Shown one piece after another: positions 3,069 through 38,804 of a DNA stretch of 39,163 nucleotides. The notes below the pieces were generated by a model, which worked only from the letters and a program-made list of their open reading frames with translations, was not told where the DNA came from and did not search any database. A program made the translations under genes and the position numbers. The DNA is from Kayfunavirus PDP351P4, in sequence record OZ035749.1. One strand, 5' to 3'. The number at the start of each line of letters is the position of its first letter. The stretch's first letter is position 1.

Positions 3069-3101
3069 CGCAATCATGGTAACGATTCATGAGCGGAAGA
3101 C

Positions 3102-3145
3102 CTAAGGTCAGTACGTGGATAAAGACTCACTCTACTGACCTTAGC
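3102..3145. other. perfect 12-bp inverted repeat (CTAAGGTCAGTA ... TACTGACCTTAG) forming a hairpin with 20-nt loop in the genome-end region
   Basis: read directly; the two arms are exact reverse complements; function not assigned (terminator, RNA processing or packaging signal). Confidence 0.6.
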
Positions 3146-3497
3146 TACTGTAGTCAAGGACTTTAGGTAACACCTTAATAGAAGCTCACTTAGGGTCATC
3201 CTACTTACTGGTCTATCCTAGTGTCGCCTGACCTACGGTCCTTGACCTACAGTGGCTGTGGCCTACAGCAGTGACGATGAGTTTTGGACCAAAAGTTTGA
3301 GACCACATCTCACAGTTCAAGAACCTCAAGTCTCCCCATAGGCCCTCTTTCAGTCCAGACCAAAGGCCCTACCCCAGTCTATCATAAGGTTGGACCGATG
3401 GTCAATACTTAAGGTCGACGATAGGTCTAGGCTATGGCTGGAGGTCAGGACGATAGGTAGGGACTATTGGTCTTCTTTGAGTCTCTATCTGTATCAG

Positions 3498-3610
3498 ACC
3501 ATAGGTCACAACCATAGGTCACAACCATAAGTCATAACCTACATCTCACAACCATAAGTCATAACCTACAGCCTCAACCATAAGACACCTACAGTCTAAA
3601 CCTACAGTTA
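3498..3610. repeat. tandem array of about 8 degenerate 13-14 bp units (ACCATAGGTCACA / ACCATAAGTCATA / ACCTACAGCCTCA ...) in the genome-end/left-end region
   Basis: read directly; first two units are identical; related ACCTACRG units also at about 3231-3270. Confidence 0.7.
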
Positions 3611-3720
3611 ATAGACACAATGGCTATAGACTTAAGGTCTAAGACGTGTTAGTCAAAGACTATATCCTCTTACACCATGGGGCCGACGATGGCTCAATCA
3701 ATATTATTTCAACTTACCTA

Positions 3721-3750
3721 TTGACTATAGGTCTCGACTATGGCCTAATA
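3721..3750 (+). promoter_or_regulatory. candidate host sigma70 early promoter (weak)
   Basis: TTGACT at 3721 with a poor -10 (CCTAAT/CTAATA) about 17-18 bp downstream. Confidence 0.25.
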
Positions 3751-3860
3751 GCTTCCGTCAACACGACACGGCAACAACCGGATAGTGAAGACGCCGTGTC
3801 ATCCCGGTTAAGTAGACAGCCTGATAAGTCATACGAACAACAGGCAGATGACAGAAGTAG

Positions 3861-3895
3861 TTGACAAGATGTAAGACTTAACGTAGTATGATTCA
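3861..3895 (+). promoter_or_regulatory. candidate host sigma70 early promoter (A-type)
   Basis: TTGACA (3861-3866), 17-bp spacer, TAGTAT (3884-3889); upstream of gene 0.3 where T7 carries A1-A3. Confidence 0.5.
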
Positions 3896-3928
3896 CCAAG
3901 TAGTACAGCAAGCGAGTTAAGAAAGTGA

Positions 3929-3963
3929 TTGACAAGCTGGTTTGACTGTAGTAACTTATACGA
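3929..3963 (+). promoter_or_regulatory. candidate host sigma70 early promoter (A-type, weaker -10)
   Basis: TTGACA (3929-3934), 17-bp spacer, TAACTT (3952-3957). Confidence 0.35.
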
Positions 3964-4080
3964 CAAGCAAGATTAGTGAGTCCCAACACTGAAACGGGAT
4001 AGCACGGCGACGACAGCCAATGCGAATGCTCTTTAACAATTTGGATAAACTCTTAATGTGCGCCGATAGCGACTAACTAC

Positions 4081-4110
4081 AGGGTCTTTGAGTCTACATC
4101 TGAAGGCCCT
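4081..4110 (+). promoter_or_regulatory. RNase III-site-like hairpin variant upstream of gene 0.3 (R0.3 position)
   Basis: AGGGTC ... GGCCCT stem with wobble pairing, same architecture as the AAGGTCA/TGGCCTT elements. Confidence 0.35.
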
Positions 4111-4155
4111 GACTGATAGTCACTAACACATACTTAACTTTGAGAGGATATAACT

Positions 4156-4488
4156 ATGGAACGTAACGCTAACGCATACTATGACCTGCTGGCTGCAACC
4201 GTTGAAGCATTTAACGAGCGTATTCAGTGCGACGAAATAGCTGAAGGCGATGACTACTGCGATGCGCTGCATGAAGTCGTAGACGGTCAGGTTCCGCACT
4301 ATTACCACGAGATTTTCACGGTGATGGCTGCGGATGGTATCGACCACGAGTTCGAAGACTCTGGGCTGATGCCTGAGACCACGGACGTAACGCGTATACT
4401 ACAAGCTCGCATCTATGAGGCACTGTATAACGATGTGTCTAATAGCTCGGATGTAGTTTGGTTTGAGGCTGAAGAGGACTGCGAGTGA
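4156..4488 (+). CDS. ocr: Ocr, anti-restriction DNA-mimic protein (T7 gp0.3-like)
   Basis: 110 aa, acidic; [43 protein letters not shown] aligns closely with remembered T7 Ocr ([43 protein letters not shown]); first early gene. Confidence 0.9.
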   Translation: [110 protein letters not shown]

Positions 4489-11914: not shown

Positions 11915-12613
11915 ATGGCTAAAGAGCAACTGAAGACTTTCACCACTCCGGTAGCTGGTATCGTTGAGCCTTACGCATGGCTGAACAAAGCAGACACCAA
12001 GTTTAACGAGCGTGGTGAGCATAAGGTTAACCTGACATTCGACCTAAGCGACCCGAAGGTCCGTAAGATGATTGATGTCTTACAGAAGATTCACGACGAT
12101 GCGTATGCGAAAGCACTCGCAGACCACGAGAAGAACCCGCCTCAGGTTCAGCGTGGCAAGAAGCCTATCGAACCACGTGAAGGCGACATGCCGTGGATTG
12201 AGAACGGTGATGGCACTGTTACCCTGAAGTTCAAATGCTTTGCGTCTTACCTCAAAGACGGCAAGTCCGAGCCTATCGTATTACGGTTCTACGACACCGA
12301 TGCTAAACTCATCCGTGACGTCCCGAATATTGGAGCTGGGTCTAAGCTGAAGGTCAAGTTTAAAGTCCTTCCGTTCAAGTGGAACGCTGCGACTGGTGCA
12401 AGCGTTAAGCTCCAGCTTGAGTCATGCCTTCTGGTAGAACTGAAGGAGTGGAAAGGTGATGGTGCTGGTGGCGATGGTGGCTGGGGTGATGATGAAGACA
12501 TCGGTACTGGCTACAAAGCGTCAACTGATGGTGACTTCGGGTCTGATGACTTCGGTGACGATGGTTCCGAAGGTGGTGACGACTCCGGCTCTGGTGGCGA
12601 TTACGACTTCTAA
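11915..12613 (+). CDS. single-stranded DNA-binding protein (T7 gp2.5-like)
   Basis: 232 aa, identical length to T7 gp2.5; acidic Gly/Asp-rich C-terminal tail ending in DF. Confidence 0.9.
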   Translation: MAKEQLKTFTTPVAGIVEPYAWLNKADTKFNERGEHKVNLTFDLSDPKVRKMIDVLQKIHDDAYAKALADHEKNPPQVQRGKKPIEPREGDMPWIENGDGTVTLKFKCFASYLKDGKSEPIVLRFYDTDAKLIRDVPNIGAGSKLKVKFKVLPFKWNAATGASVKLQLESCLLVELKEWKGDGAGGDGGWGDDEDIGTGYKASTDGDFGSDDFGDDGSEGGDDSGSGGDYDF

Positions 12614-13068
12614 TGGCCCAATGGTCTGCAAAACGGGGGCACTCTGTGGGTGCCTACCGCTCTGGACTTGAAGCCAAGAACCAGCAGTGGCTGGAACAGA
12701 ACGGCGTCAAAGCGGAGTACGAAAGCCATTATATCAACTATGTGATTCCGGCTTCCGACCACAAGTATACACCAGACTTTATCCTTCCAAACGGCATCAT
12801 CGTGGAGACCAAAGGTATCTTCGATAGTGATGACCGTAAGAAGCACCTTCTGGTACGAGAACAGCACCCAGAGTTAGACATCCGGTTCGTGTTCTCAAGT
12901 TCACGCTCCAAGTTATACAAAGGGTCCCCGACCACGTATGGAGCATGGTGCGAAAAGAACGGCTTTAAGTTTGCCGACAAGTTTATCCCGGTTGAGTGGC
13001 TTCGAGAGGCGACTTTACGTCTGCCTTCCGGTATACTCATCCCTAAGAAGAAAGGAGCTACGAAATGA
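12613..13068 (+). CDS. endonuclease I, Holliday junction resolvase (T7 gp3-like)
   Basis: 151 aa; YTPDFILPNGIIVETKG...DDRKKHLLVREQHPELDIRFVFSSSRSKLYKGSPT aligns closely with remembered T7 gp3. Confidence 0.9.
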   Translation: MAQWSAKRGHSVGAYRSGLEAKNQQWLEQNGVKAEYESHYINYVIPASDHKYTPDFILPNGIIVETKGIFDSDDRKKHLLVREQHPELDIRFVFSSSRSKLYKGSPTTYGAWCEKNGFKFADKFIPVEWLREATLRLPSGILIPKKKGATK

Positions 13069-20208: not shown

Positions 20209-20481
20209 ATGGCGATTAATGCTATTGAAAATGTTGTTAAGCAGTTACAGGAAGAAAGACTTGATGTCCCTAACATCTCCCAGTCTGCCCTCCAGTTCCT
20301 GCACGTACTGTTCAACGCAAGCTACGCTGATAAGATGGGAGCTATCAGTCTCCTCAAGCAGCAAGGCTACAGCGATGCGTTCATTGCCGGGTTCATCAAG
20401 GGTCTCCAGTATTGTTCTGACACTCTCGACTCTGCAATCGCTATGCGTCGTGAGCTTAAAGATACCGTTCAGTTCGATTAA
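20209..20481 (+). CDS. gene 6.5-like protein, unknown function
   Basis: 90 aa; positional assignment only. Confidence 0.5.
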   Translation: MAINAIENVVKQLQEERLDVPNISQSALQFLHVLFNASYADKMGAISLLKQQGYSDAFIAGFIKGLQYCSDTLDSAIAMRRELKDTVQFD

Positions 20482-20495
20482 CTGTAGGAGGGACT

Positions 20496-20720
20496 ATGTG
20501 TTTCAGTCCAAAGATTAGCACTCCGAAGCCTTCGGTCCAAGCACCTGAACCAGCACCTCTGAGTGAGGAAGTTGCGTCAGTTGACATCGGGGCTGAATCG
20601 GATGTGGACACCAATGAGACCAAAGGTATCAAAGACCTTAAGGTTAAGAAGGAGTCTGCACCTAAAGATAAATCGTCAGTGAGTCGCGCTATGCGGGCCT
20701 CTGGCGTAAACATGGGGTAA
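20496..20720 (+). CDS. virion protein (T7 gp6.7-like)
   Basis: 74 aa beginning MCFSPKI as remembered for T7 gp6.7; low-complexity charged C-terminal part. Confidence 0.7.
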   Translation: MCFSPKISTPKPSVQAPEPAPLSEEVASVDIGAESDVDTNETKGIKDLKVKKESAPKDKSSVSRAMRASGVNMG

Positions 20721-25388: not shown

Positions 25389-25955
25389 ATGTCTCAATAC
25401 ATTCCACTGAATGCTAACGATGACTTAGATGCCATCAACGATATGTTAGCTGCTATCGGTGAACCAGCAGTCCTACAGCTTGACGAAGGCAATGCTGATG
25501 TCTCGAATGCTCAACGCATCCTGCATCGTGTCAATCGTCAGGTCCAAGCTAAAGGCTGGAACTTTAACATCAACGAAGCTGCTGTCCTGACACCTGATGT
25601 CCAAGACAACAGGATTCGATTCCTACCGTCATACCTTCGTGTAATGACTGCTGGGGCCACCAGCTATTATAGCAACATGGGTGGATACCTGTACGACCTG
25701 TCCACTCAGTCAACCACTTTCACCGACCCTATAACAGTAGAGCTTGTTGAGATGAAACCATTCTCTGAGATGCCAGTGGTCTTCAGGGACTACATCGTTA
25801 CCAAGGCTAGCCGTGAGTTCAACGCTAAGTTCTTCGGTAGCCCAGAGTCTGAACTGTACCTTCGTGAGCAGGAAGCAGAACTCTATCAGCAGGTCATGGA
25901 ATATGAGATGGACACTGGTCGCTACAACATGATGTCCGACATCGGGAGGGACTAA
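25389..25955 (+). CDS. tail tubular protein A / gatekeeper (T7 gp11-like)
   Basis: 188 aa (T7 gp11 is 196); first gene after T-phi. Confidence 0.8.
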   Translation: MSQYIPLNANDDLDAINDMLAAIGEPAVLQLDEGNADVSNAQRILHRVNRQVQAKGWNFNINEAAVLTPDVQDNRIRFLPSYLRVMTAGATSYYSNMGGYLYDLSTQSTTFTDPITVELVEMKPFSEMPVVFRDYIVTKASREFNAKFFGSPESELYLREQEAELYQQVMEYEMDTGRYNMMSDIGRD

Positions 25956-26182
25956 TGGCAGCGCATAATCTGAAGATTCACCGCCAGCACTTTGGTCCGG
26001 TACAACTAGGTCTAAAGACAGCAGAGCTGAGACTTAACGACCGGGACTTTAAGGTTGGCGACTGGCTTATTCTGAATGAGTGGGACAACGGGTATACTGG
26101 ACAACAGGTAGCACGTAAGGTTGTCCACATTGCTGACGTTGGTGACATCGCTGAGGGATACGTCCTAATGAGTATGATTTAA
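25955..26182 (+). CDS. DUF3850/ASCH-like (PUA-fold) small protein inserted between genes 11 and 12
   Basis: 75 aa; H.FGPV..G.KTAELRLNDRDFKVGDWLILNEWD.G.YTG fits the DUF3850 pattern as I remember it; ATGG overlap with the gene 11 stop. Confidence 0.55.
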   Translation: MAAHNLKIHRQHFGPVQLGLKTAELRLNDRDFKVGDWLILNEWDNGYTGQQVARKVVHIADVGDIAEGYVLMSMI

Positions 26183-26191
26183 GGAGGGCCT

Positions 26192-28549
26192 ATGCCACTT
26201 ATCACACAAAGCATAAAAAATCTTAAAGGTGGAATTAGCCAGCAGCCTGACATCCTGAGGTTCTCAGACCAAGGCGAGGAGCAAGTTAACTGCTGGTCAT
26301 CAGAGAGTGATGGCCTCCAGAAGCGTCCACCTACAGTCTTCAAGCGACGTCTTAACATCGACGTTGGTAGTAACCCTAAGTTCCACCTGATTAACCGTGA
26401 TGAGCAGGAGCAGTATTACATCGTGTTCAACGGGTCCAACATTCAGGTAGTTGACTTGAGTGGTAATCAATACTCCGTTTCCGGTGCGGTAGATTACGTT
26501 AATTCGTCCAACCCGCGAGATGACATCCGTGTAGTTACCGTTGCAGACTATACGTTCATCGTGAACCGTAAGGTTGTCGTTAAAGGTGGAAGCGATAAGT
26601 CACACTCTGGTTATAATCGTAAAGCTCGCGCTTTAATCAACCTGCGTGGTGGACAGTATGGTCGCACCCTTAAGGTAGGAATCAACGGAGGCGTTAAGGT
26701 TTCGCATAAGTTGCCAGCAGGTAATGATGCCGAGAATGACCCACCTAAGGTGGATGCGCAGGCCATCGGTGCAGCTCTGAGAGACCTTCTTGTTGCTGCT
26801 TACCCTACCTTCACGTTCGACCTTGGGTCTGGCTTCCTGTTGATCACTGCCCCTTCAGGGACTGACATTAACTCAGTGGAGACGGAGGATGGCTACGCTA
26901 ACCAGCTAATCAGCCCAGTACTCGACACGGTGCAAACAATCTCTAAGTTGCCTCTTGCAGCTCCAAATGGGTATATCATTAAGATTCAAGGTGAGACAAA
27001 CAGTAGCGCCGATGAATACTACGTGATGTATGACTCCAACACTAAGACGTGGAAGGAGACAGTGGAGCCGGGAGCCGTTACTGGGTTCGATGTCGCCACA
27101 ATGCCACATGCTCTGGTCAGAAAGTCTGATGGCTCATTTGAGTTCAAGACTCTGGATTGGTCCAAGCGTGGTGCTGGTAACGATGACACAAACCCTATGC
27201 CTAGCTTCGTGGATGCTACGATTAATGATGTGTTCTTCTACAGGAACAGACTTGGGTTCTTGTCAGGCGAGAACGTAATCATGAGCCGTTCAGCAAGCTA
27301 CTTTGCGTTCTTCCCTAAGAGTGTGGCGACACTGAGTGATGATGATCCTATTGACGTAGCTGTAAGTCACCCTAGAATCTCAATCCTTAAGTATGCCGTT
27401 CCGTTTAGTGAGCAGCTACTACTTTGGTCGGATGAGGTTCAGTTCGTGATGACAAGCTCTGGGGTACTTACATCGAAGTCTATCCAGCTTGATGTAGGCT
27501 CAGAGTTTGCCTTAGGCGATAATGCCAGACCGTTCGCTGTAGGACGCTCAGTCTTCTTCTCAGCGCCTCGTGGGTCATTCACCAGCATTAAGCGATACTT
27601 CGCTGTAGCAGATGTGTCTGATGTGAAGGATGCTGATGATACCACTGGCCACGTACTGTCCTATATCCCTAACGGGGTGTTTGACATTCAAGGTACAGGT
27701 ACTGAGAACTATATCTGCGTCAACTCTACAGGTGCATACAACCGAATCTACATCTACAAGTTCTTGTTTAAGGATGGCGTACAGCTTCAAGCCTCTTGGT
27801 CGCACTGGGAGTTCCCTAAAGCTGATAAGATTCTGGCATCTGCGTCTATTGGCTCTACCATGTTCATTGTTCGTCAGCACCAAGGCGGCGTGGACCTTGA
27901 GCACCTTAAGTTCATCAAGGAGGCAACTGACTTTCCGTTAGAGCCATATAGACTCCACGTTGACTCCAAGGTGTCTATGGTAATACCAATTGGCTCATAC
28001 AACGCTGACACCTATAAGACTACGGTTGACATTGGTTCTGCTTATGGTGGAAACGCTCCGTCTCCCGGTCGGTACTATCTTATTGACAGTCAGGGTGCTT
28101 ATGTAGACCTTGGTGACCTGACTAGCACATCCACTGTGGTTACCATTAATGGCGATTGGTCAGGACGTACAGTGTTCATCGGACGGTCTTATCTGATGTC
28201 CTACAAGTTCTCACGGTTCCTGATTAAGATTGAAGACGAGAGTGGTACTCAGTCTGAAGACACTGGACGCCTACAACTTCGTCGGGCTTGGGTCAACTAC
28301 AAGGACACTGGCGCTCTTAGACTCATTGTCAGAAACGGTGAGCGGGAGTTCGTGAACACCTTTAATGGGTACACCCTTGGTCAGCAAACCATCGGGACTA
28401 CCAACATTGGGGATGGTCAGTATCGCTTCGCTATGAATGGTAACGCATTAACCACGAGTCTAACCTTAGAGTCAGATTATCCTACCCCAGTGTCCATCGT
28501 TGGCTGTGGCTGGGAGGCGTCATACGCTAAGAAAGCTCGTTCCGTCTAA
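26192..28549 (+). CDS. tail tubular protein B / nozzle (T7 gp12-like)
   Basis: 785 aa (T7 gp12 is 794); gene 12 position. Confidence 0.88.
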   Translation: MPLITQSIKNLKGGISQQPDILRFSDQGEEQVNCWSSESDGLQKRPPTVFKRRLNIDVGSNPKFHLINRDEQEQYYIVFNGSNIQVVDLSGNQYSVSGAVDYVNSSNPRDDIRVVTVADYTFIVNRKVVVKGGSDKSHSGYNRKARALINLRGGQYGRTLKVGINGGVKVSHKLPAGNDAENDPPKVDAQAIGAALRDLLVAAYPTFTFDLGSGFLLITAPSGTDINSVETEDGYANQLISPVLDTVQTISKLPLAAPNGYIIKIQGETNSSADEYYVMYDSNTKTWKETVEPGAVTGFDVATMPHALVRKSDGSFEFKTLDWSKRGAGNDDTNPMPSFVDATINDVFFYRNRLGFLSGENVIMSRSASYFAFFPKSVATLSDDDPIDVAVSHPRISILKYAVPFSEQLLLWSDEVQFVMTSSGVLTSKSIQLDVGSEFALGDNARPFAVGRSVFFSAPRGSFTSIKRYFAVADVSDVKDADDTTGHVLSYIPNGVFDIQGTGTENYICVNSTGAYNRIYIYKFLFKDGVQLQASWSHWEFPKADKILASASIGSTMFIVRQHQGGVDLEHLKFIKEATDFPLEPYRLHVDSKVSMVIPIGSYNADTYKTTVDIGSAYGGNAPSPGRYYLIDSQGAYVDLGDLTSTSTVVTINGDWSGRTVFIGRSYLMSYKFSRFLIKIEDESGTQSEDTGRLQLRRAWVNYKDTGALRLIVRNGEREFVNTFNGYTLGQQTIGTTNIGDGQYRFAMNGNALTTSLTLESDYPTPVSIVGCGWEASYAKKARSV

Positions 28550-28573
28550 CTTATTGAAGGGCCTATAGATTTA

Positions 28574-28597
28574 CCTTAACTATCACTATAGGGACTA
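28574..28597 (+). promoter_or_regulatory. phage RNAP promoter (phi13 position)
   Basis: CCTTAACTATCACTATAGGGACTA. Confidence 0.7.
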
Positions 28598-28625
28598 TAG
28601 GCCCTTAAGGTTATAAGGAGACTTT

Positions 28626-29081
28626 ATGTATATTCGCAAGGCTACAGATGTAGACGTTTGGTACGCTGCTGCACAACTTACAGATGACGACTTAGAGGAG
28701 TGTAAAGCCAACTATGGGACCACTGAAGGTCTCACCGAAAGGCTGCAAGCACACCTAACGTCGACATCTGTGGTTTTGACTAACGCTCTTGGAGAGATTT
28801 ACGCCTATGGTGGCAACCAAGGTGACAACGTTTGGTTCCTGACGACCAGAATGACCGAGCGTCTCACACCTGAAGGTAAGCGAGAGTTCCGTGAGAGAAT
28901 CATGGAGTATCGTGACAAGATGCTGGAGGATTATCAGGTACTATGGAACTACGTCTGGGAAGGCAATACGTCCCACATCCGGTTTCTCAAGTCAATAGGC
29001 GCTAAGTTCCACGACGATAAGTGGACCAGAAGTCCAGTTACTGGAGAAGTATTCATTCTATTTACAATCACCAAGGAGTAA
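28626..29081 (+). CDS. internal virion protein (T7 gp13-like)
   Basis: 151 aa (T7 gp13 is 138); positional assignment. Confidence 0.6.
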   Translation: MYIRKATDVDVWYAAAQLTDDDLEECKANYGTTEGLTERLQAHLTSTSVVLTNALGEIYAYGGNQGDNVWFLTTRMTERLTPEGKREFRERIMEYRDKMLEDYQVLWNYVWEGNTSHIRFLKSIGAKFHDDKWTRSPVTGEVFILFTITKE

Positions 29082-29083
29082 AG

Positions 29084-29485
29084 ATGACCAAGGTTTGTTT
29101 AACTTGTGGTCTGGAGAAACCAATCACTGAGTTTCACAAACAGGCCACCAAGAAAGACCAAAACAGGAGAAAGCCTCATTGCAGAAGCTGCTGGTCCAAG
29201 ATACGGAAGGATAGAACCCCAGAGCACAACAGGCGGTATAACCTGAAGAAAGGCTACGGAATAACACCTGAGGAGTATGATAAGATGCTTCGTGAGCAAG
29301 GTGGGACATGTGCCATCTGCCATGGTACAGAGTCGGTAGGAAGACTAGCGGTAGACCATTGCCATTCCACTGGAAAGGTTAGAGGGCTGCTATGTACCAA
29401 CTGCAATCAAGCTATAGGCAAGCTGAAGGATGACGCTCAGTTGCTTAGGAACGCTATCAACTATCTGGAGGTGAGCCGTGTGTGA
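29084..29485 (+). CDS. endonuclease VII-family (HNH-like) nuclease, putative homing endonuclease
   Basis: 133 aa from the ATG preceded by AAGGAG; CAICHG...L.VDHCH.TGKVRGLLCTNCN..IGKL matches the zinc/HNH core of T4 endonuclease VII (C.IC...L..DH.H....GKVRGLLC..CN); Arg codons mostly AGA/AGG and Ile ATA, unlike neighbouring genes. Confidence 0.8.
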   Translation: MTKVCLTCGLEKPITEFHKQATKKDQNRRKPHCRSCWSKIRKDRTPEHNRRYNLKKGYGITPEEYDKMLREQGGTCAICHGTESVGRLAVDHCHSTGKVRGLLCTNCNQAIGKLKDDAQLLRNAINYLEVSRV

Positions 29486-30065
29486 ACCAGTATCCATCGG
29501 TTTAGGAATCATGTCAGTGGCTGGTGCCACTATGTCTGCGTCCAGCCAAGCTAAGGCCGAAGGTGCAGCAATTGACGCTCAGAACCGTCAGTCTCAGGAG
29601 ATGGTTAAGCAGATGAACTACTCTGACGCCAACCTGAAGATGCAGGAGCGAGACCTGAAGGAGCAGCAGATGGCTGAACTGACAGAGACCACGTTAAACG
29701 GTATCCGCAATCAGGGTATGGTCCGAGCTGCGGTAGCTGAGTCCGGTCTGGAGGGTAACTCTATGGACAGGATTGAACGTCAGGTCGAGGGAGACACAGT
29801 CAAGGAGAGAGCCGGGATTACCGAAAGCTACAACCGTGACTATGCGGCTATCTTCGGGAACCGTATCACCAACATTGAGAACACCAAGTCTGCTATCCGT
29901 GGTCAAGGTAAAATCATCAAGACCAGCCCACTAGCTCATGCACTTAATGTTGCTAACGCCGGGATGCAAGGGTACGCTGCTGGTAAGTCACTATCTGGAG
30001 CATCAAGCTATGGTGGTGCTGCACCGATTAGTGCTGCTAAAGGCACACCTACAGGTCATAGCTAA
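29478..30065 (+). CDS. internal virion protein A (T7 gp14-like), GTG start
   Basis: 195 aa (T7 gp14 is 196); begins (M)CEPVSIGLGI resembling T7 gp14 MCWAAAIPIAI; MDRI.R motif shared. Confidence 0.8.
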   Translation: MCEPVSIGLGIMSVAGATMSASSQAKAEGAAIDAQNRQSQEMVKQMNYSDANLKMQERDLKEQQMAELTETTLNGIRNQGMVRAAVAESGLEGNSMDRIERQVEGDTVKERAGITESYNRDYAAIFGNRITNIENTKSAIRGQGKIIKTSPLAHALNVANAGMQGYAAGKSLSGASSYGGAAPISAAKGTPTGHS

Positions 30066-30076
30066 GAGGAGGACTA

Positions 30077-32359
30077 ATGGCTAGTAATATTGAATCAGCT
30101 CTGGCTAATCGGACTATGGGTCGTGGCAGAGCGCCGGGTAAAACTATCGCCGTCAACTATCAAGCAGCCAGCGTTCAGGCTCCAACTGGTGACTCAGGTC
30201 TGGCTCGGGCGTTAACCAACTTCGTTGAGTCTGGTACTGGATTATACAAGCAGTTCAAAGACGAGGAGAAGACACGGGCTGACGAGCGGTCTAACGAGAT
30301 TATCCGTAAGCTGACACCTCAGCAAAGACGTGAGGCTATCCAGAACGGCACACTGCTGTATCAGGACGACCCTTACGCTATGGAAGCACTTCGAGTCAAG
30401 ACTGGTAGAAACGCTGCCTTTGCGGTAGACGATGAGATTAACGTTAAGATTCAGAACGGTGAGTTCCGTACACGTCAGGACATGGAAGAGTATCGCCACC
30501 AGAGACTTCAGGACGCCGCTAAGTCCTATGCTGAAGAGGCGGGTATTAACCCTACCGATGAGTTCTTCCAGCGAGGGTTCAACGATAACATCACAGACCG
30601 CAACATCGCTATCTATGGGTCCTTCAATAAGTATTTCAGTAAGCAGTCTGAAGAGACCGCAATGTTGAACACTCGTATTGAGATGAACTCATTCCTGAAC
30701 GATGGCGACCTGATGCGTTCACCTGAGTCAGGTAAGACCTTCATGGCCTACCTTCGTGATGGATTGACTACTGCTGCTATCCCTTCGGACCAGCGAGCAC
30801 GAGAGGTCATTACCCAGACGGTCCGTGACGCAATCCAGAAGTCTGGTGGCTCAAACTTCCTACAGCAAGTACGAGGCGAGCGAATCACCCTTAACGGTGT
30901 GGACGCTACAGTCGAAGAGATTGTAGGACCTGATGTCTTCAACGCTGCTATTGTTGAGGCACAAGGAACTGAGTACAAGCTGGTGGCTAAGTATCAGGAG
31001 GACTTAGCGTTAGGCGTCCAGTCTGCGATTCTTCAGGATGACCCGACCATCGGTCTTGCCCAGATTCAGAAACTCAAGGAGCAGAACAACCTGCTTCAGC
31101 CGGGTGAAGAACTCACGCCTCAGCGTCAGATGCTTATTAATGCCGAAGCCAGCTTACTGGAAGCGGTCAAGCGTAAGTCCGCTGAACAGGCGAAGGAGAA
31201 CACTAAGTTAATCCAGACGCAGAACAAGCAACTGGTCATTGACCAAGTGTATCAGCGACGTCTGGCTGGGGACAACGTGTCCACCAACTATGAGGACCTT
31301 CCGGTCTCAGACGCTACAGGCGAGTTCAAACGTTCGGACATGAACAACTACGCGTCTGCCAAGCTACAGCAGATTGACCAGATGGACATCCCTGAGGCTG
31401 CTAAAGACGCTCAGAAGGTGGCATTGTTAAGAGCTGACACTAACAACGGTCCGTTCCGTAATGCCTTCCAGACTCTAACTCAGGACGCTGCTGGCGAGTG
31501 GCAAGCTGCGGTCATCCGTGGACAGTACGACCCAGACAAGATGCAACGCTTCGAGTCTCTTCGTCGTGCCTACACTCAGGACCCTTCAAGTTTTGCTGCT
31601 CTGTATCCTGACCAAGCTCAGTTGTTCTCTACGTTCGACCAGATGGACAAGATGGGTCTGGACCCTCAGACGATGATTGAAGCTGATAAGCAAGCTGCAA
31701 GTCAAAGCCGTGAGATGCGCATGGAGTCAGACAAGGCGTGGCAGGAGTTGAAGAACGACTCCAAGAACACCCAGTTGTCTCGCCTCCCAACGTCTCTGGA
31801 CGCAAGTGCTCGTAAGGTATGGGACTCATGGTACTATCGTACAGGTAACGCGGACGCTGCAACGCAGCAGACTCAACGCTGGCTTAACGAGAACACAGTA
31901 ACGTTCCAATCTGAAGGTTCGGACGGTAAGTCCATCGGCATGGTGTCCAAACACCAGCTTATGGTCGGGGATAACCCAGAGTCGTGGCAGGTGGGTCGAG
32001 ACATTATAGACACCGCTCGTAAGCAGCTCATTAAGGCCAACCCTTGGGTAGTGAACTCTCAATTGTCCGTTGTTGAACAGAACGGCTCTATCTTCCTCCA
32101 AGACGCTACAGGTACTATTCGTATTCGATACGATAAAGAACTTGTAGGTAAACTCTACCGCGAACAACAGCAGAAGGCACAAGATGCCGCATATGCTCAG
32201 GCAGAACGTGACGCTAACAAGCGAGCGCGTATAGTCGGGACTAAAGCTGCTGGTGACAAGCGTCGAGCTGACCGAGAGGCCAACATCGAGAAGAGCGGTG
32301 GGATGTACAATGACGTCTCACTGGAGGGTATCGCAAACGTACTAATTGGTAAGGAGTAA
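30077..32359 (+). CDS. internal virion protein B (T7 gp15-like)
   Basis: 760 aa (T7 gp15 is 747); AGGAGG RBS; gene 15 position. Confidence 0.85.
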   Translation: MASNIESALANRTMGRGRAPGKTIAVNYQAASVQAPTGDSGLARALTNFVESGTGLYKQFKDEEKTRADERSNEIIRKLTPQQRREAIQNGTLLYQDDPYAMEALRVKTGRNAAFAVDDEINVKIQNGEFRTRQDMEEYRHQRLQDAAKSYAEEAGINPTDEFFQRGFNDNITDRNIAIYGSFNKYFSKQSEETAMLNTRIEMNSFLNDGDLMRSPESGKTFMAYLRDGLTTAAIPSDQRAREVITQTVRDAIQKSGGSNFLQQVRGERITLNGVDATVEEIVGPDVFNAAIVEAQGTEYKLVAKYQEDLALGVQSAILQDDPTIGLAQIQKLKEQNNLLQPGEELTPQRQMLINAEASLLEAVKRKSAEQAKENTKLIQTQNKQLVIDQVYQRRLAGDNVSTNYEDLPVSDATGEFKRSDMNNYASAKLQQIDQMDIPEAAKDAQKVALLRADTNNGPFRNAFQTLTQDAAGEWQAAVIRGQYDPDKMQRFESLRRAYTQDPSSFAALYPDQAQLFSTFDQMDKMGLDPQTMIEADKQAASQSREMRMESDKAWQELKNDSKNTQLSRLPTSLDASARKVWDSWYYRTGNADAATQQTQRWLNENTVTFQSEGSDGKSIGMVSKHQLMVGDNPESWQVGRDIIDTARKQLIKANPWVVNSQLSVVEQNGSIFLQDATGTIRIRYDKELVGKLYREQQQKAQDAAYAQAERDANKRARIVGTKAAGDKRRADREANIEKSGGMYNDVSLEGIANVLIGKE

Positions 32360-36314: not shown

Positions 36315-38804
36315 ATGTCCACGATTACACAATTCCCTTCAGGAAACACTCAGTACAGGATTGAGTTCGACTACCTAGCCAGAACGTTTGTTGTTGTTAC
36401 GCTGGTGAATAGCTCTAACCTTACCCTGAACCGTGTACTGGAAGTTGGTCGAGATTACCGATTCCTTAATCCAACGATGATTGAGATGCTGGTTGACCAA
36501 TCAGGTTTCGACACCGTTCGTATTCACCGTCAGACTGGAACTGACTTAGTGGTAGACTTCAGGAATGGCTCAGTGTTGACAGCTAGTGACCTGACCAATG
36601 CAGAGCTTCAGGCTATCCATATTGCAGAAGAAGGTCGAGACCAAACGGTTGACTTAGCGAAGGAATATGCTGATGCTGCTGGTATCTCTGCTGGCAACGC
36701 TAAGGATAGCGAGGACGAAGTACGACGAATCGCTGCGAATATCAAGGCATCTGGTCAAATTGGCTATATTGCCCGTCGCTCCTTCGAGAAAGGCTTCAAC
36801 GTTACAACATGGAACGAGGCCCTGCTATGGGAAGAGGATGGTGAGTATTACCGCTGGGATGGCACGCTTCCAAAGAACGTTCCTGCTGGTTCAACTCCTG
36901 AATCATCTGGTGGTATTGGGCTGGGTGCGTGGGTTAGTGTTGGTGATGCGACACTTAGAGGGGAAATCTCTTCTAAATATGGATTATCAATTATTGGTGG
37001 GTTTGAATCAATAGATGATATTAGATCATATTCATCAACAGCCAGCTTGCCAAACGGTGCAAGAGCATTCTTGTTTAGTTTTCATGCTGGTAAAAACACT
37101 GGTGGTGGTGTGTTTCAGTGGTACAGCAACGCGACAACATCCGATGACGGTTTCTCTGTTATTAAGCCATCATCTGTTTCTGGGGCGGGCCGGTGGATTA
37201 ACGTTAAGCGTGGCAGGCTAACTCCGGAAGAATGTGGTTGCGTACCTAATGACCCATCATTTGATAACGGTGTACCACTTAATAGATGGGCATCACAACA
37301 GCACTGTATTGGTTCCGTTGGCGTCTTTTATAAAACAACTGCTTTAATACCCTCACCGCCAGCGTATCCGCAGTATATAGACGCTAAGGGTATGCGGCTG
37401 ATGACTACCGTACCTGACGTAAACGGGCTGGAACTCCCCCCTGCTACGTCCAGACGTATCACTATTGAGGGCCTTGAGTCGTTCGGTGACCCATCATTAA
37501 CAGTAACAAATCGTAATAAAGCCAACGGCTTCTATATCGCAGGTAGCCGTGAAGTTACGTTAAAGAATATTCGCTGTGAGGGGTGGAAAAACTCTGGTGT
37601 CTGGTGGTTTGAAGTCAACAATATGACCATAGACGGTTTTATTGGGTGGAGGAATGATTGGGATGGTTCAACGCTATTCTCCTCTGGCGGTGATTTAGTT
37701 GAATGGACTTCGAGCGCCGGGTTGGCGAAATCATGCAGTATAAATAATTTTGCGTGTTTTTCAGACGGCAGCCAGAGCATTTCAGTAAACTCACTTTCTT
37801 TTGGGAGAAACATATTAATTAGCAATGGACGTTGCTTCACGTATGACGCCACAGATTTTACGCCAAAGACTCGTTCAGATATCAAAGCTCGTCACGGAAT
37901 TACGATAGGTTACAGCTCCAATCAGACATATGGTGGGGGAGTCAAAGTCAGCAATGTCATTATCAGAGATAAGGGATGGACTGGTATTTATCGGTCCGGC
38001 GGCCTAGATGGAGCTGTTCGATACCAACCAGCAACAGTCTCTAACGTTTCCGTGTACGATTGCGGTTTTGGTATAAATCAAGACAACATCGGTGCTGGTA
38101 TTCTGTTCGGTGACGTAGTGGACGGAGACATGATCAACAACTGTTATGTGGAAGGATTCGCTAACGCTAATAACGGTGCGTATAAAATTCAGGATTCTGT
38201 AGGTACAGGTAAGCTGACAATAGCTAACTGTGTTGATAAAAGCTCTGCTGGCTACGGGGTGCATATAGCAACAGAGTCGGTTAACGTAATGGTTATTGGG
38301 CACAGAAGCATAGAACCAACCGGAGCAGGTATTTTTCTTGAGGCAAAAGGCGGCGCAACACTATTCCGGTCGCATACTATTGACGGATGCCGTATTGAGC
38401 GTGTGACGGACGGTTACGGAATATTGTTGTCTAACGGCGTACTTAGCGCAAATATTAAAAACAACGAAATCCGTGGTACTTCTACGAACTCCACAACAAA
38501 CTGTGCTATTCGGGTAAACCAAAACGGGCAAAACATAAATATCAGAGGAAATCAGATTTACGGTTTTGCATACGGGTTGTGGTACAATACCTATGTGGAT
38601 ACCACAACAATATTCCCGTGGGGTAACAACCAATTCTTCGGCTGCATTAACGCACACCGTTTCGCAAGGACGACCGGCACCAGCGTAGCCAAGGTAGAAC
38701 CAAACTACTACGATGGAGGAACTACAAACATGTTCTCCAACGGTGGCGTGGGAACGAGTAACGGAACGGAAGAATTTAGAGTTAATGGTGCTCCTGTGAC
38801 CTAA
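36315..38804 (+). CDS. tail fiber / tailspike: T7 gp17-like N-terminal adaptor fused to a large beta-helix (depolymerase-like) C-terminal domain
   Basis: 829 aa (T7 gp17 is 553); the N-terminal roughly 150 aa align with T7 gp17 (F.YLAR.FVVVTL, LV.DF.NGS.L.A.DL, EEGRD); the remainder is unrelated, rich in N/G/S/T with repeated rung-like segments ([38 protein letters not shown]) and a visibly more AT-rich nucleotide composition. Confidence 0.88.

Follow-up and report, generated by a model that had tools for sequence, protein, structure and literature searches.

Introduction

Cyanophage S-PM2 encodes F-CphI, a homing endonuclease that uses an endonuclease VII (Endo VII) motif and in connection with which a "DHHRN" family has been proposed (Fang et al., 2018, PMC6083498). 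The same study, which defined the motif and the roles of its residues, found that motif-bearing proteins split into a resolvase clade, with the motif N-terminal, and an endonuclease clade, with the motif C-terminal; the podoviruses of the endonuclease clade all encode T7 endonuclease I, and hence their Endo VII-like proteins are probably not resolvases (PMC6083498). Among the proteins with a C-terminal motif in Table S1 of that study is gp13.5 of Escherichia phage EcoDS1 (ACF15821; Fang et al., 2018, PMC6083498). Here we examine the corresponding gene of Kayfunavirus PDP351P4, gene 13.5, which lies between the virion genes 13 and 14 at positions 29,084–29,485 (+ strand) of sequence record OZ035749.1, a stretch of 39,163 nucleotides that we refer to as the window. 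We consider it likely that gene 13.5 is a free-standing homing endonuclease gene of a K1F-like phage that was inserted on the start codon of gene 14.

The gene product, gp13.5, resembles F-CphI in being free-standing and in carrying a C-terminal Endo VII motif with the residues D-H-H-R-N and the pattern CX2C...CX2C, a likeness of motif and not of direct alignment; the gene has no intron, which is a point of difference from F-CphI. Its closest described relative is EcoDS1 gp13.5 (YP_002003777 / ACF15821, annotated "endonuclease VII"), which has the same 133 residues, the same slot, the same overlap with gene 14 and 97% amino acid identity. The two proteins differ at four residues, and the start codon of gene 14 is GTG in the window but ATG in EcoDS1. 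A gene 13.5 of the same family occupies the same slot in the Yersinia phages phiYeO3-12 and vB_YenP_AP5 (Teetrevirus), where the annotation names T4 endonuclease VII as a homolog, but these phages belong to a different genus and the identity is only 50% at the amino acid level. The preliminary description of this DNA, which was made from the sequence alone, had stated that T7 has no gene between genes 13 and 14; this is right for T7 itself, although a named gene 13.5 has long been recorded there in phiYeO3-12 and EcoDS1. As the gene has a 97% orthologue that is annotated, and belongs to a published family for which this role was predicted, the element is already known. Our additions are modest, namely the anatomy of the insertion at the nucleotide level and the recognition that the slot holds several alleles.

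Anatomy of the Insertion at the Gene 14 Start Codon

The open reading frame (ORF) of gene 13.5 comprises 133 codons from an ATG at 29,084 to a TGA at 29,483–29,485. Pfam matches on either side confirm its placement, as first described, between gene 13 (28,626–29,081, + strand; internal virion/scaffold protein gp13; Phage_T7_Gp13, PF11090, E = 1e-36; phrog_308) and gene 14 (29,478–30,065, + strand; internal virion protein gp14; T7_gp14, PF24072, E = 2.5e-45, residues 1–179). Gene 14 begins with GTG and overlaps the 3′ end of the endonuclease gene, stop codon included, by 8 nt.

Alignments of occupied and empty junctions delimit the inserted DNA to 394 bp (29,084–29,477, + strand), beginning with the co-opted start codon and ending immediately before the new gene 14 start, and an empty-site record has a span shorter by 393 bp. 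The left border falls exactly on the gene 14 start codon, as is evident from two loci with matching gene 13 cassettes: the empty locus L008 reads AAGGAGGACGT-ATG-TGC-GAG into gene 14, and the occupied locus of vB_EcoP-101136BS1 reads AAGGAGGACGT-ATG-ACG-AAG... into the endonuclease gene. At the right border the sequence is ...CTGGAGGTGA(A/G)CC-(G/A)TG-TGT-GAA. In the empty junction of Salmonella phage ST66, the gene 13 stop codon is followed by one base and then directly by the ATG of gene 14.

The insert captures the Shine-Dalgarno sequence and ATG of gene 14, and its 3′ end provides gene 14 with replacements for both. The captured Shine-Dalgarno sequence, AAGGAG (29,073–29,078, + strand), is 5 nt upstream of the endonuclease ATG. 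The preliminary description had credited the gene with a strong ribosome binding site of its own; the site is there and well placed, but it is the ancestral one of gene 14, shared with the genomes that have empty sites. The replacement, GGAGGTGA (29,467–29,474, + strand), is very strong as read from the sequence, lies within the final codons of the endonuclease gene (…L-E-V-S…) and is kept in 7/7 copies of the allele found in the window. Gene 14 starts with ATG in 23 of 24 empty-site loci sampled (GTG in L007), and among the seven carriers of the window's allele the start codon is GTG in five and ATG in two.

Nothing convincing was found in a search for terminal inverted repeats or a target-site duplication flanking the 394-bp insert, and the identity of a transposon or insertion sequence, which was considered, was rejected as both are lacking. 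Likewise, an Rfam scan gave no match to a group I intron or to any other Rfam family anywhere in the window; with the gene intergenic between two intact genes and no Rfam match, we rejected an intron-encoded homing endonuclease. A 10-nt near-repeat links the end of gene 13 (ATCACCAAGG, 29,067–29,076) with the start of the endonuclease gene (ATGACCAAGG, 29,084–29,093), the two being identical at 9/10 positions, and all three Kayfunavirus endonuclease alleles (below) start M-(T)-K-V-C. The near-repeat may represent microhomology at the left junction, or it may be coincidence.

Distribution of Occupied and Empty Junctions

Approximately 215 phage records carry a Kayfunavirus-type gene 14, and the 13/14 junction is occupied in ~15 of these; the rest, where sampled, are empty. 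That the gene was inserted between genes 13 and 14, as first proposed, is thus borne out by the junction comparison, the uninterrupted junction being that of the majority of close relatives. The allele of the window (at least 88% amino acid identity) is found in seven records from six phages, and all seven copies are intact; near-identical copies are those of TH20, vB_EcoP-101136BS1, Hafnia phage yong1, Kayfunavirus PDP21P1 and Enterobacter phage vB_VIPECLMC06. The copy in yong1 has been listed merely as "endonuclease VII" (PMC8861465). A second, HC13-type allele (128 residues, 40–45% identical depending on the alignment) occupies the same slot in another seven records, and in one record, KM02, an allele of this type has lost the catalytic core through an in-frame deletion.

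Metagenomic loci gave a similar picture. Forty-two T7-like loci were retrieved from IMG/VR with gp13 as the query, and 40 of these were empty. Locus L025 has a third allele (40–44% identical depending on the alignment) in the same slot, and L027 retains only a 3′ remnant of an endonuclease gene, fused to a truncated gene 13. In this Kayfunavirus contig (L027, 2,423–3,022) a deletion has left the final third of an HC13-type endonuclease gene attached to a gene 13 that is cut at approximately codon 108; either gp13 can do without its C-terminus, or the genome is defective or mis-assembled. KM02 and L027 bring the degenerate copies to two, and such copies are expected of a cycle of invasion, decay and loss. 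A sporadic presence among close relatives, together with empty sites defined to the nucleotide, is the distribution looked for in a free-standing homing gene.

In the loci with the HC13-type allele, the third allele or the remnant (L002, 1,969–2,010; L004; L025; L027; homologous to window positions 29,478–29,513), the position of the gene 14 start reads ATT (…TAG GAA ATT TGC GAA CCA…) and the next in-frame ATG is codon 12. Codons 9–10 of gene 14 are mostly (C/T)TAGGA where the site is occupied, which places AGGA 3 nt before the codon 12 ATG, and ATGGGT in most empty genomes. Gene 14 in the ATT phages may start at the ATT or may produce a protein that is shorter by 11 residues.

Uncoupling of Gene 13.5 From Its Flanks

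Gene 13 exists in the genus as two cassettes with ~62% DNA identity, a synonymous divergence (dS) above 1.5 and sharp edges at approximately codon 8 and at AAGGAG, as determined by comparison of window positions 28,626–29,081 with loci L001–L052. Genes 12, 14, and 15 are ~93–96% identical in most pairs compared, despite the change of gene 13 cassette. Gene 13 is therefore a clean mosaic module, and it adjoins the endonuclease slot.

The window, EcoDS1 and TH20 have one gene 13 cassette, and the carriers 101136BS1, yong1, PDP21P1, and VIPECLMC06 have the other, even though the endonuclease gene in the latter phages is 90–95% identical to that of the window at the nucleotide level in the first three and 82% identical in VIPECLMC06. 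Since the same allele is found beside both cassettes, and both cassettes are also found with an empty site, all four combinations of cassette and occupancy exist. The idea that the endonuclease is tied to one class of gene 13 allele, which the first loci, all of the window's type, had allowed, was rejected in view of these four further carriers.

A neighbor-joining tree of 1.4 kb of the right flank has the carriers scattered among empty genomes, and for 6/7 carriers the nearest neighbor is a non-carrier. A history uncoupled from that of the flanking genes is a further feature looked for in a free-standing homing gene, and the cassettes and the tree display it, although the divergence of the endonuclease gene is similar to that of the right flank and does not point to recent transfer. 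Flank polymorphisms were compared for any that would fully separate carriers from empty sites and so indicate the target site; the separation was partial. Polymorphism is unusually high in the first ~35 nt of gene 14, which mostly divide by occupancy into GTA TCC ... C/TTA GGA (occupied) vs. GTA AGT ... ATG GGT (empty); part of this difference arises because the gene 13 stop codon overlaps gene 14 in empty genomes.

The Predicted Gene 13.5 Product

The family assignment of gp13.5 is clear. A hidden Markov model (HMM) search matched residues 54–129 to Pfam Endonuclease_7 (PF02945) with 98.1 bits and E = 2.7e-28 (cut-off 23.6 bits), and the protein also matched phrog_2633, "endonuclease VII," with E = 8.5e-45. 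The zinc motif of the Endo VII/HNH type that had been reported from inspection of the sequence is thus upheld, and its quoted elements are present, CAICHG at residues 76–81 and VDHCHSTGKVRGLLCTNCN at residues 90–108. Together these form a complete Endo VII motif (CX2-4C ... D-H-x-H ... R ... CX2C-N) at residues 76–108 of 133. The catalytic core so defined (29,309–29,407, + strand) contains the zinc ligands C76, C79, C104, and C107 and the active-site residues D91, H92, H94, R100, and N108, and it aligns with C23/C26, D40, H41, H43, R54, C58/C61, and N62 of T4 Endo VII. In an alignment of 52 homologs from metagenomes the core residues are invariant or at least 90% conserved. Toward the N-terminus, a four-cysteine zinc ribbon (C5, C8, C33, C36; 29,096–29,191, + strand) is presumed to be a DNA-binding module; in the same alignment, conservation is complete for C5, C8, and C33 and reaches at least 90% for C36.

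An AlphaFold2 model built from the alignment has a mean predicted local distance difference test (pLDDT) score of 93. It displays a beta-beta-alpha-metal fold (strands 89–92 and 99–103, then helix 105–113), with strands at 2–4, 11–13, 17–19, and 29–33 in the region of the zinc ribbon. Foldseek searches with the model returned Hpy99I (E = 1.4e-5) and then T4 Endo VII (E≈1e-3 to 1e-2), both with probability 1.00, and apart from Hpy99I there was no match at E ≤ 0.001. Hpy99I (PDB 3FC3/3GOX) is also the best match by sequence among solved structures (E = 2.9e-8, residues 3–129, which include both zinc ribbon and core), with gp13.5 residues 3–129 corresponding to Hpy99I residues 76–196 and the zinc-ribbon region aligning from Hpy99I residue 76 on. 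The two proteins share the zinc ribbon and the beta-beta-alpha-metal core, but Hpy99I has ~75 extra N-terminal residues and a methyltransferase partner in a bacterial chromosome, and the superposition is loose overall (root mean square deviation, rmsd, of 12.8 Å), so that the domain arrangement may differ. For T4 Endo VII (gp49; PDB 1EN7, 2QNC) the core and zinc site match with an rmsd of 2.6–3.4 Å over ~87 aligned columns, and the sequence match covers only gp13.5 residues 62–117, to T4 residues 9–71. The T4 enzyme, which resolves branched DNA, differs in its N-terminal motif and in having a C-terminal part without counterpart in gp13.5; conversely, gp13.5 has an N-terminal zinc ribbon that the T4 enzyme does not have.

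The ratio of nonsynonymous to synonymous divergence (dN/dS) is 0.06–0.2 in pairwise comparisons among the seven intact copies of the window's allele. Gene 13.5 is thus intact and under purifying selection, and is predicted from its sequence to encode a two-zinc nuclease; we describe it as a 133-residue Endo VII-motif (DHHRN) beta-beta-alpha-metal endonuclease and putative free-standing homing endonuclease on the strength of the PF02945 match, the EcoDS1 ortholog, the model, the Foldseek matches and dN/dS. The phage also has gene 3 (12,613–13,068, + strand; PF05367, E = 1.7e-81), a T7-type endonuclease I and hence a Holliday-junction resolvase, which makes a resolvase role for gp13.5 unnecessary. 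With its C-terminal motif and a separate endonuclease I encoded by the same phage, gp13.5 falls into the endonuclease (non-resolvase) clade; it has neither the full-length similarity to gp49 nor the position of sole resolvase that would mark a T4 Endo VII proper.

Codon Usage

The codon usage of gene 13.5 is atypical, as the preliminary description had noted, although the count of rare arginine codons (AGA/AGG/CGG) given there, 8/12, was too low. The twelve arginine codons are AGA (5), AGG (3), CGG (2), and CGT (2), and the rare codons therefore number 10/12, compared to 137/626 (22%) in the other genes (Fisher p = 1.4e-5). The frequent use of ATA for isoleucine also held, at 3/6 vs. 58/572 elsewhere (p = 0.018). 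When the synonymous choices of each gene were scored against the rest of the genome, with an out-of-frame ORF at 20,219–20,518 excluded, gene 13.5 had z = −3.8 and was the third most atypical of 43 genes, behind the tail-fiber gene (z = −9.4) and the Rz gene, within which Rz1 is embedded (z = −4.0). The excluded ORF (99 residues, extreme codon usage) was rejected as a false gene, as it overlaps the real gene 6.5 (20,209–20,481) in another frame and has no family hits. The contrast with neighboring genes that had been described stands in part: rare arginine usage is clearly different only in genes 14 (2/10), 15 (9/53), and 16 (11/78), and not in gene 13 (5/10) or gene 12 (15/38).

The tail-fiber gene (36,315–38,804) exceeds all other genes of the genome by a wide margin in its atypical codon usage, with 21/45 rare arginine codons, ATA at 14/59 isoleucine codons and a GC content at third codon positions (GC3) of 0.43, which is consistent with a horizontally exchanged host-range module.

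Genome Setting and Predicted Expression

The window is the genome, circularly permuted, of a phage of the genus Kayfunavirus, a K1F-like relative of T7. Its region 28,000–30,600 is 95% identical to EcoDS1, and its first 25 kb are 93–95% identical to several Kayfunavirus records. The nearest phage promoter to the endonuclease gene is phi13 (28,576–28,595, + strand), an exact match to the 20-nt phage RNA-polymerase promoter consensus of the window, for which there are 7 sites vs. 0 expected, and EcoDS1 has phi13 annotated at the same place. No sigma-70-like promoter was found on the + strand between 28,400 and 30,200, and no terminator was found in the same interval. Gene 13.5 is thus predicted to have neither promoter nor terminator of its own, and the late transcript from phi13 is predicted to carry genes 13, 13.5, and 14.

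Some other features of the genome may be recorded here. Relative to EcoDS1 the window is permuted, starting in the gene 18 region and continuing with terminase (883–2,613) and then gp19.5. Positions 3,069–4,155, ahead of an ocr-like gene 0.3 (4,156–4,488), are a stretch of ~1.1 kb without ORFs, which should contain the early host promoters as well as the junction of the terminal repeats. Between genes 11 and 12 (25,955–26,182) there is a 75-residue ASCH/DUF3850-domain gene (PF12961, E = 1.5e-19), labeled "RNA-binding protein" in EcoDS1, for which we know of no T7 counterpart.

Discussion

We infer from these sequence comparisons that gp13.5 cleaves DNA and that its gene homes. In the mechanism we propose, gp13.5 would, during a mixed infection, cut the genome of a co-infecting relative without the gene at or near its uninterrupted 13/14 junction; the genome of the carrier would be protected, since the insert splits or alters the target site. 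The break would then be repaired by recombination from the carrier genome, by which the gene and some flanking DNA would be copied into the cut genome. Over time copies would decay and be lost, leaving a patchy distribution. That gene 13.5 is a free-standing homing endonuclease was also the proposal of the preliminary description, and the patchy distribution, the divergent and decayed alleles in the slot and the uncoupling from the gene 13 allele lend it support. Neither of the outcomes named there as counting against it, namely no HMM match to the family, or relatives that all carry the gene with host-like codons, was found.

Several observations weigh against homing. We sought a peak of similarity centered on the endonuclease gene, as co-conversion during a recent transfer would leave, and found none; in each pair compared its dS is close to the values for genes 14 and 15, and there is accordingly no signature of a very recent transfer. 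Old residence combined with repeated loss and recombination in the flanks could give much of the same pattern. Occupancy is only imperfectly reflected in the 5′-terminal polymorphisms of gene 14, in that one carrier (L051) is of the "empty type" and two empty genomes (L020, L021) are of the "carrier type." The rare arginine codons of genes 12 and 13 weaken the codon contrast, and, if the gene is poorly expressed, weak selection and not a foreign origin could account for the atypical arginine and isoleucine codons. Lastly, a literature search found no experimental work on any gp13.5, only annotations.

The low dN/dS, a divergence similar to that of the flanks, which fits long residence, the predicted late expression with virion genes, and a closest solved relative, Hpy99I, that is a sequence-specific restriction enzyme would all suit a domesticated nuclease, one kept for the benefit of the phage without homing, where it would degrade host DNA or cut competing phages or resident defense elements. 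We regard such a role as unlikely, as at least some 90% of close relatives lack the gene and still grow, decayed copies exist, and gene 3 already serves DNA breakdown. T7 gene 6 also serves DNA breakdown. In addition, a gene of general benefit leaves unexplained why different alleles are found in exactly the same slot. Less probable again, in our estimation, is that gene 13.5 is an ancestral resident of the T7-like structural operon, not mobile, possibly an inactive nuclease, and lost many times. The presence of a gene 13.5 in the 13/14 slot of several genera (Teetrevirus phiYeO3-12 and AP5, Klebsiella phages and Kayfunavirus) and a divergence that follows the right flank speak for this possibility, but it is difficult to reconcile with carriers scattered on the flank tree, with one allele on two gene 13 cassettes that both also occur empty, with the atypical codon usage, or with catalytic residues that are all conserved under purifying selection.

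Alleles from other junctions also bear on an ancestral gene. The gene 13.5 family is found in the 13/14 slot of Teetrevirus phiYeO3-12 and AP5 and of several Klebsiella phages, and related endonucleases (45–52% amino acid identity) are found at other tight gene junctions of T7-like phages, between Rz (18.5) and large terminase (19) in ECA2 (L054, 1,471–1,896) and Serratia phage 2050H2 (L055, 1,471–1,896), and between an early gene (0.6) and the RNA polymerase gene (1) in Kayfunavirus Baskent_phicoli_1 (L056, 1,501–1,926). Alleles in the 13/14 slot are 38–50% identical to each other at the amino acid level and 35–52% identical to copies at other slots; as they are no closer mutually than to the latter, repeated colonization is favored over one ancestral gene. 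The position upstream of the large terminase gene is that of a 397-bp HNH gene described in the paper on Hafnia phage Ca, which reports a correlation between its loss and plaque size. As for the name given to gp13.5 in databases, that of the Pfam family, it and the conserved catalytic core would suggest a true Holliday-junction resolvase like T4 endonuclease VII. This we consider highly improbable, given that the phage has T7 endonuclease I, that only a 56-residue core aligns with T4 Endo VII, the part of the T4 enzyme beyond residue 71 having no counterpart, that gp13.5 shares the C-terminal position of the motif with the non-resolvase clade, and that the gene is dispensable in most relatives.

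Tentatively, the reading of gene 13.5 as a homing gene may be extended, in that the 13/14 junction might be a homing hotspot across T7-like genera, colonized independently by at least four deeply divergent Endo VII-motif lineages (38–50% amino acid identity), each of which would have taken the ribosome binding site and start codon of gene 14. We are doubtful enough of this to offer it as one possibility, and would say the same of the substitute gene 14 starts that it entails, a strong Shine-Dalgarno sequence and GTG in the window's allele and, for the other lineages, either an apparent ATT or an ATG farther downstream. If the hotspot were real, a further consequence of the selfish gene would be a changed dosage or N-terminus for a core protein that is ejected, and closely related coliphages, with their natural carrier, empty and decayed variants, would offer the T7 group a ready experimental system in which to study homing and marker exclusion.

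The evidence for gp13.5 points to a selfish homing nuclease and not to the recombination resolvase that the database name "endonuclease VII" implies, and the practical value of this distinction is mostly one of annotation. For the engineering or comparison of K1F-like therapeutic phages, it is relevant that gene 13.5 is dispensable, that it marks a recombination boundary and that it is predicted to alter the translation of gene 14. To our knowledge, the Endo VII-motif homing family rests so far on one characterized enzyme, cyanophage F-CphI; if gene 13.5 does home, it would provide this family with a tractable coliphage example.

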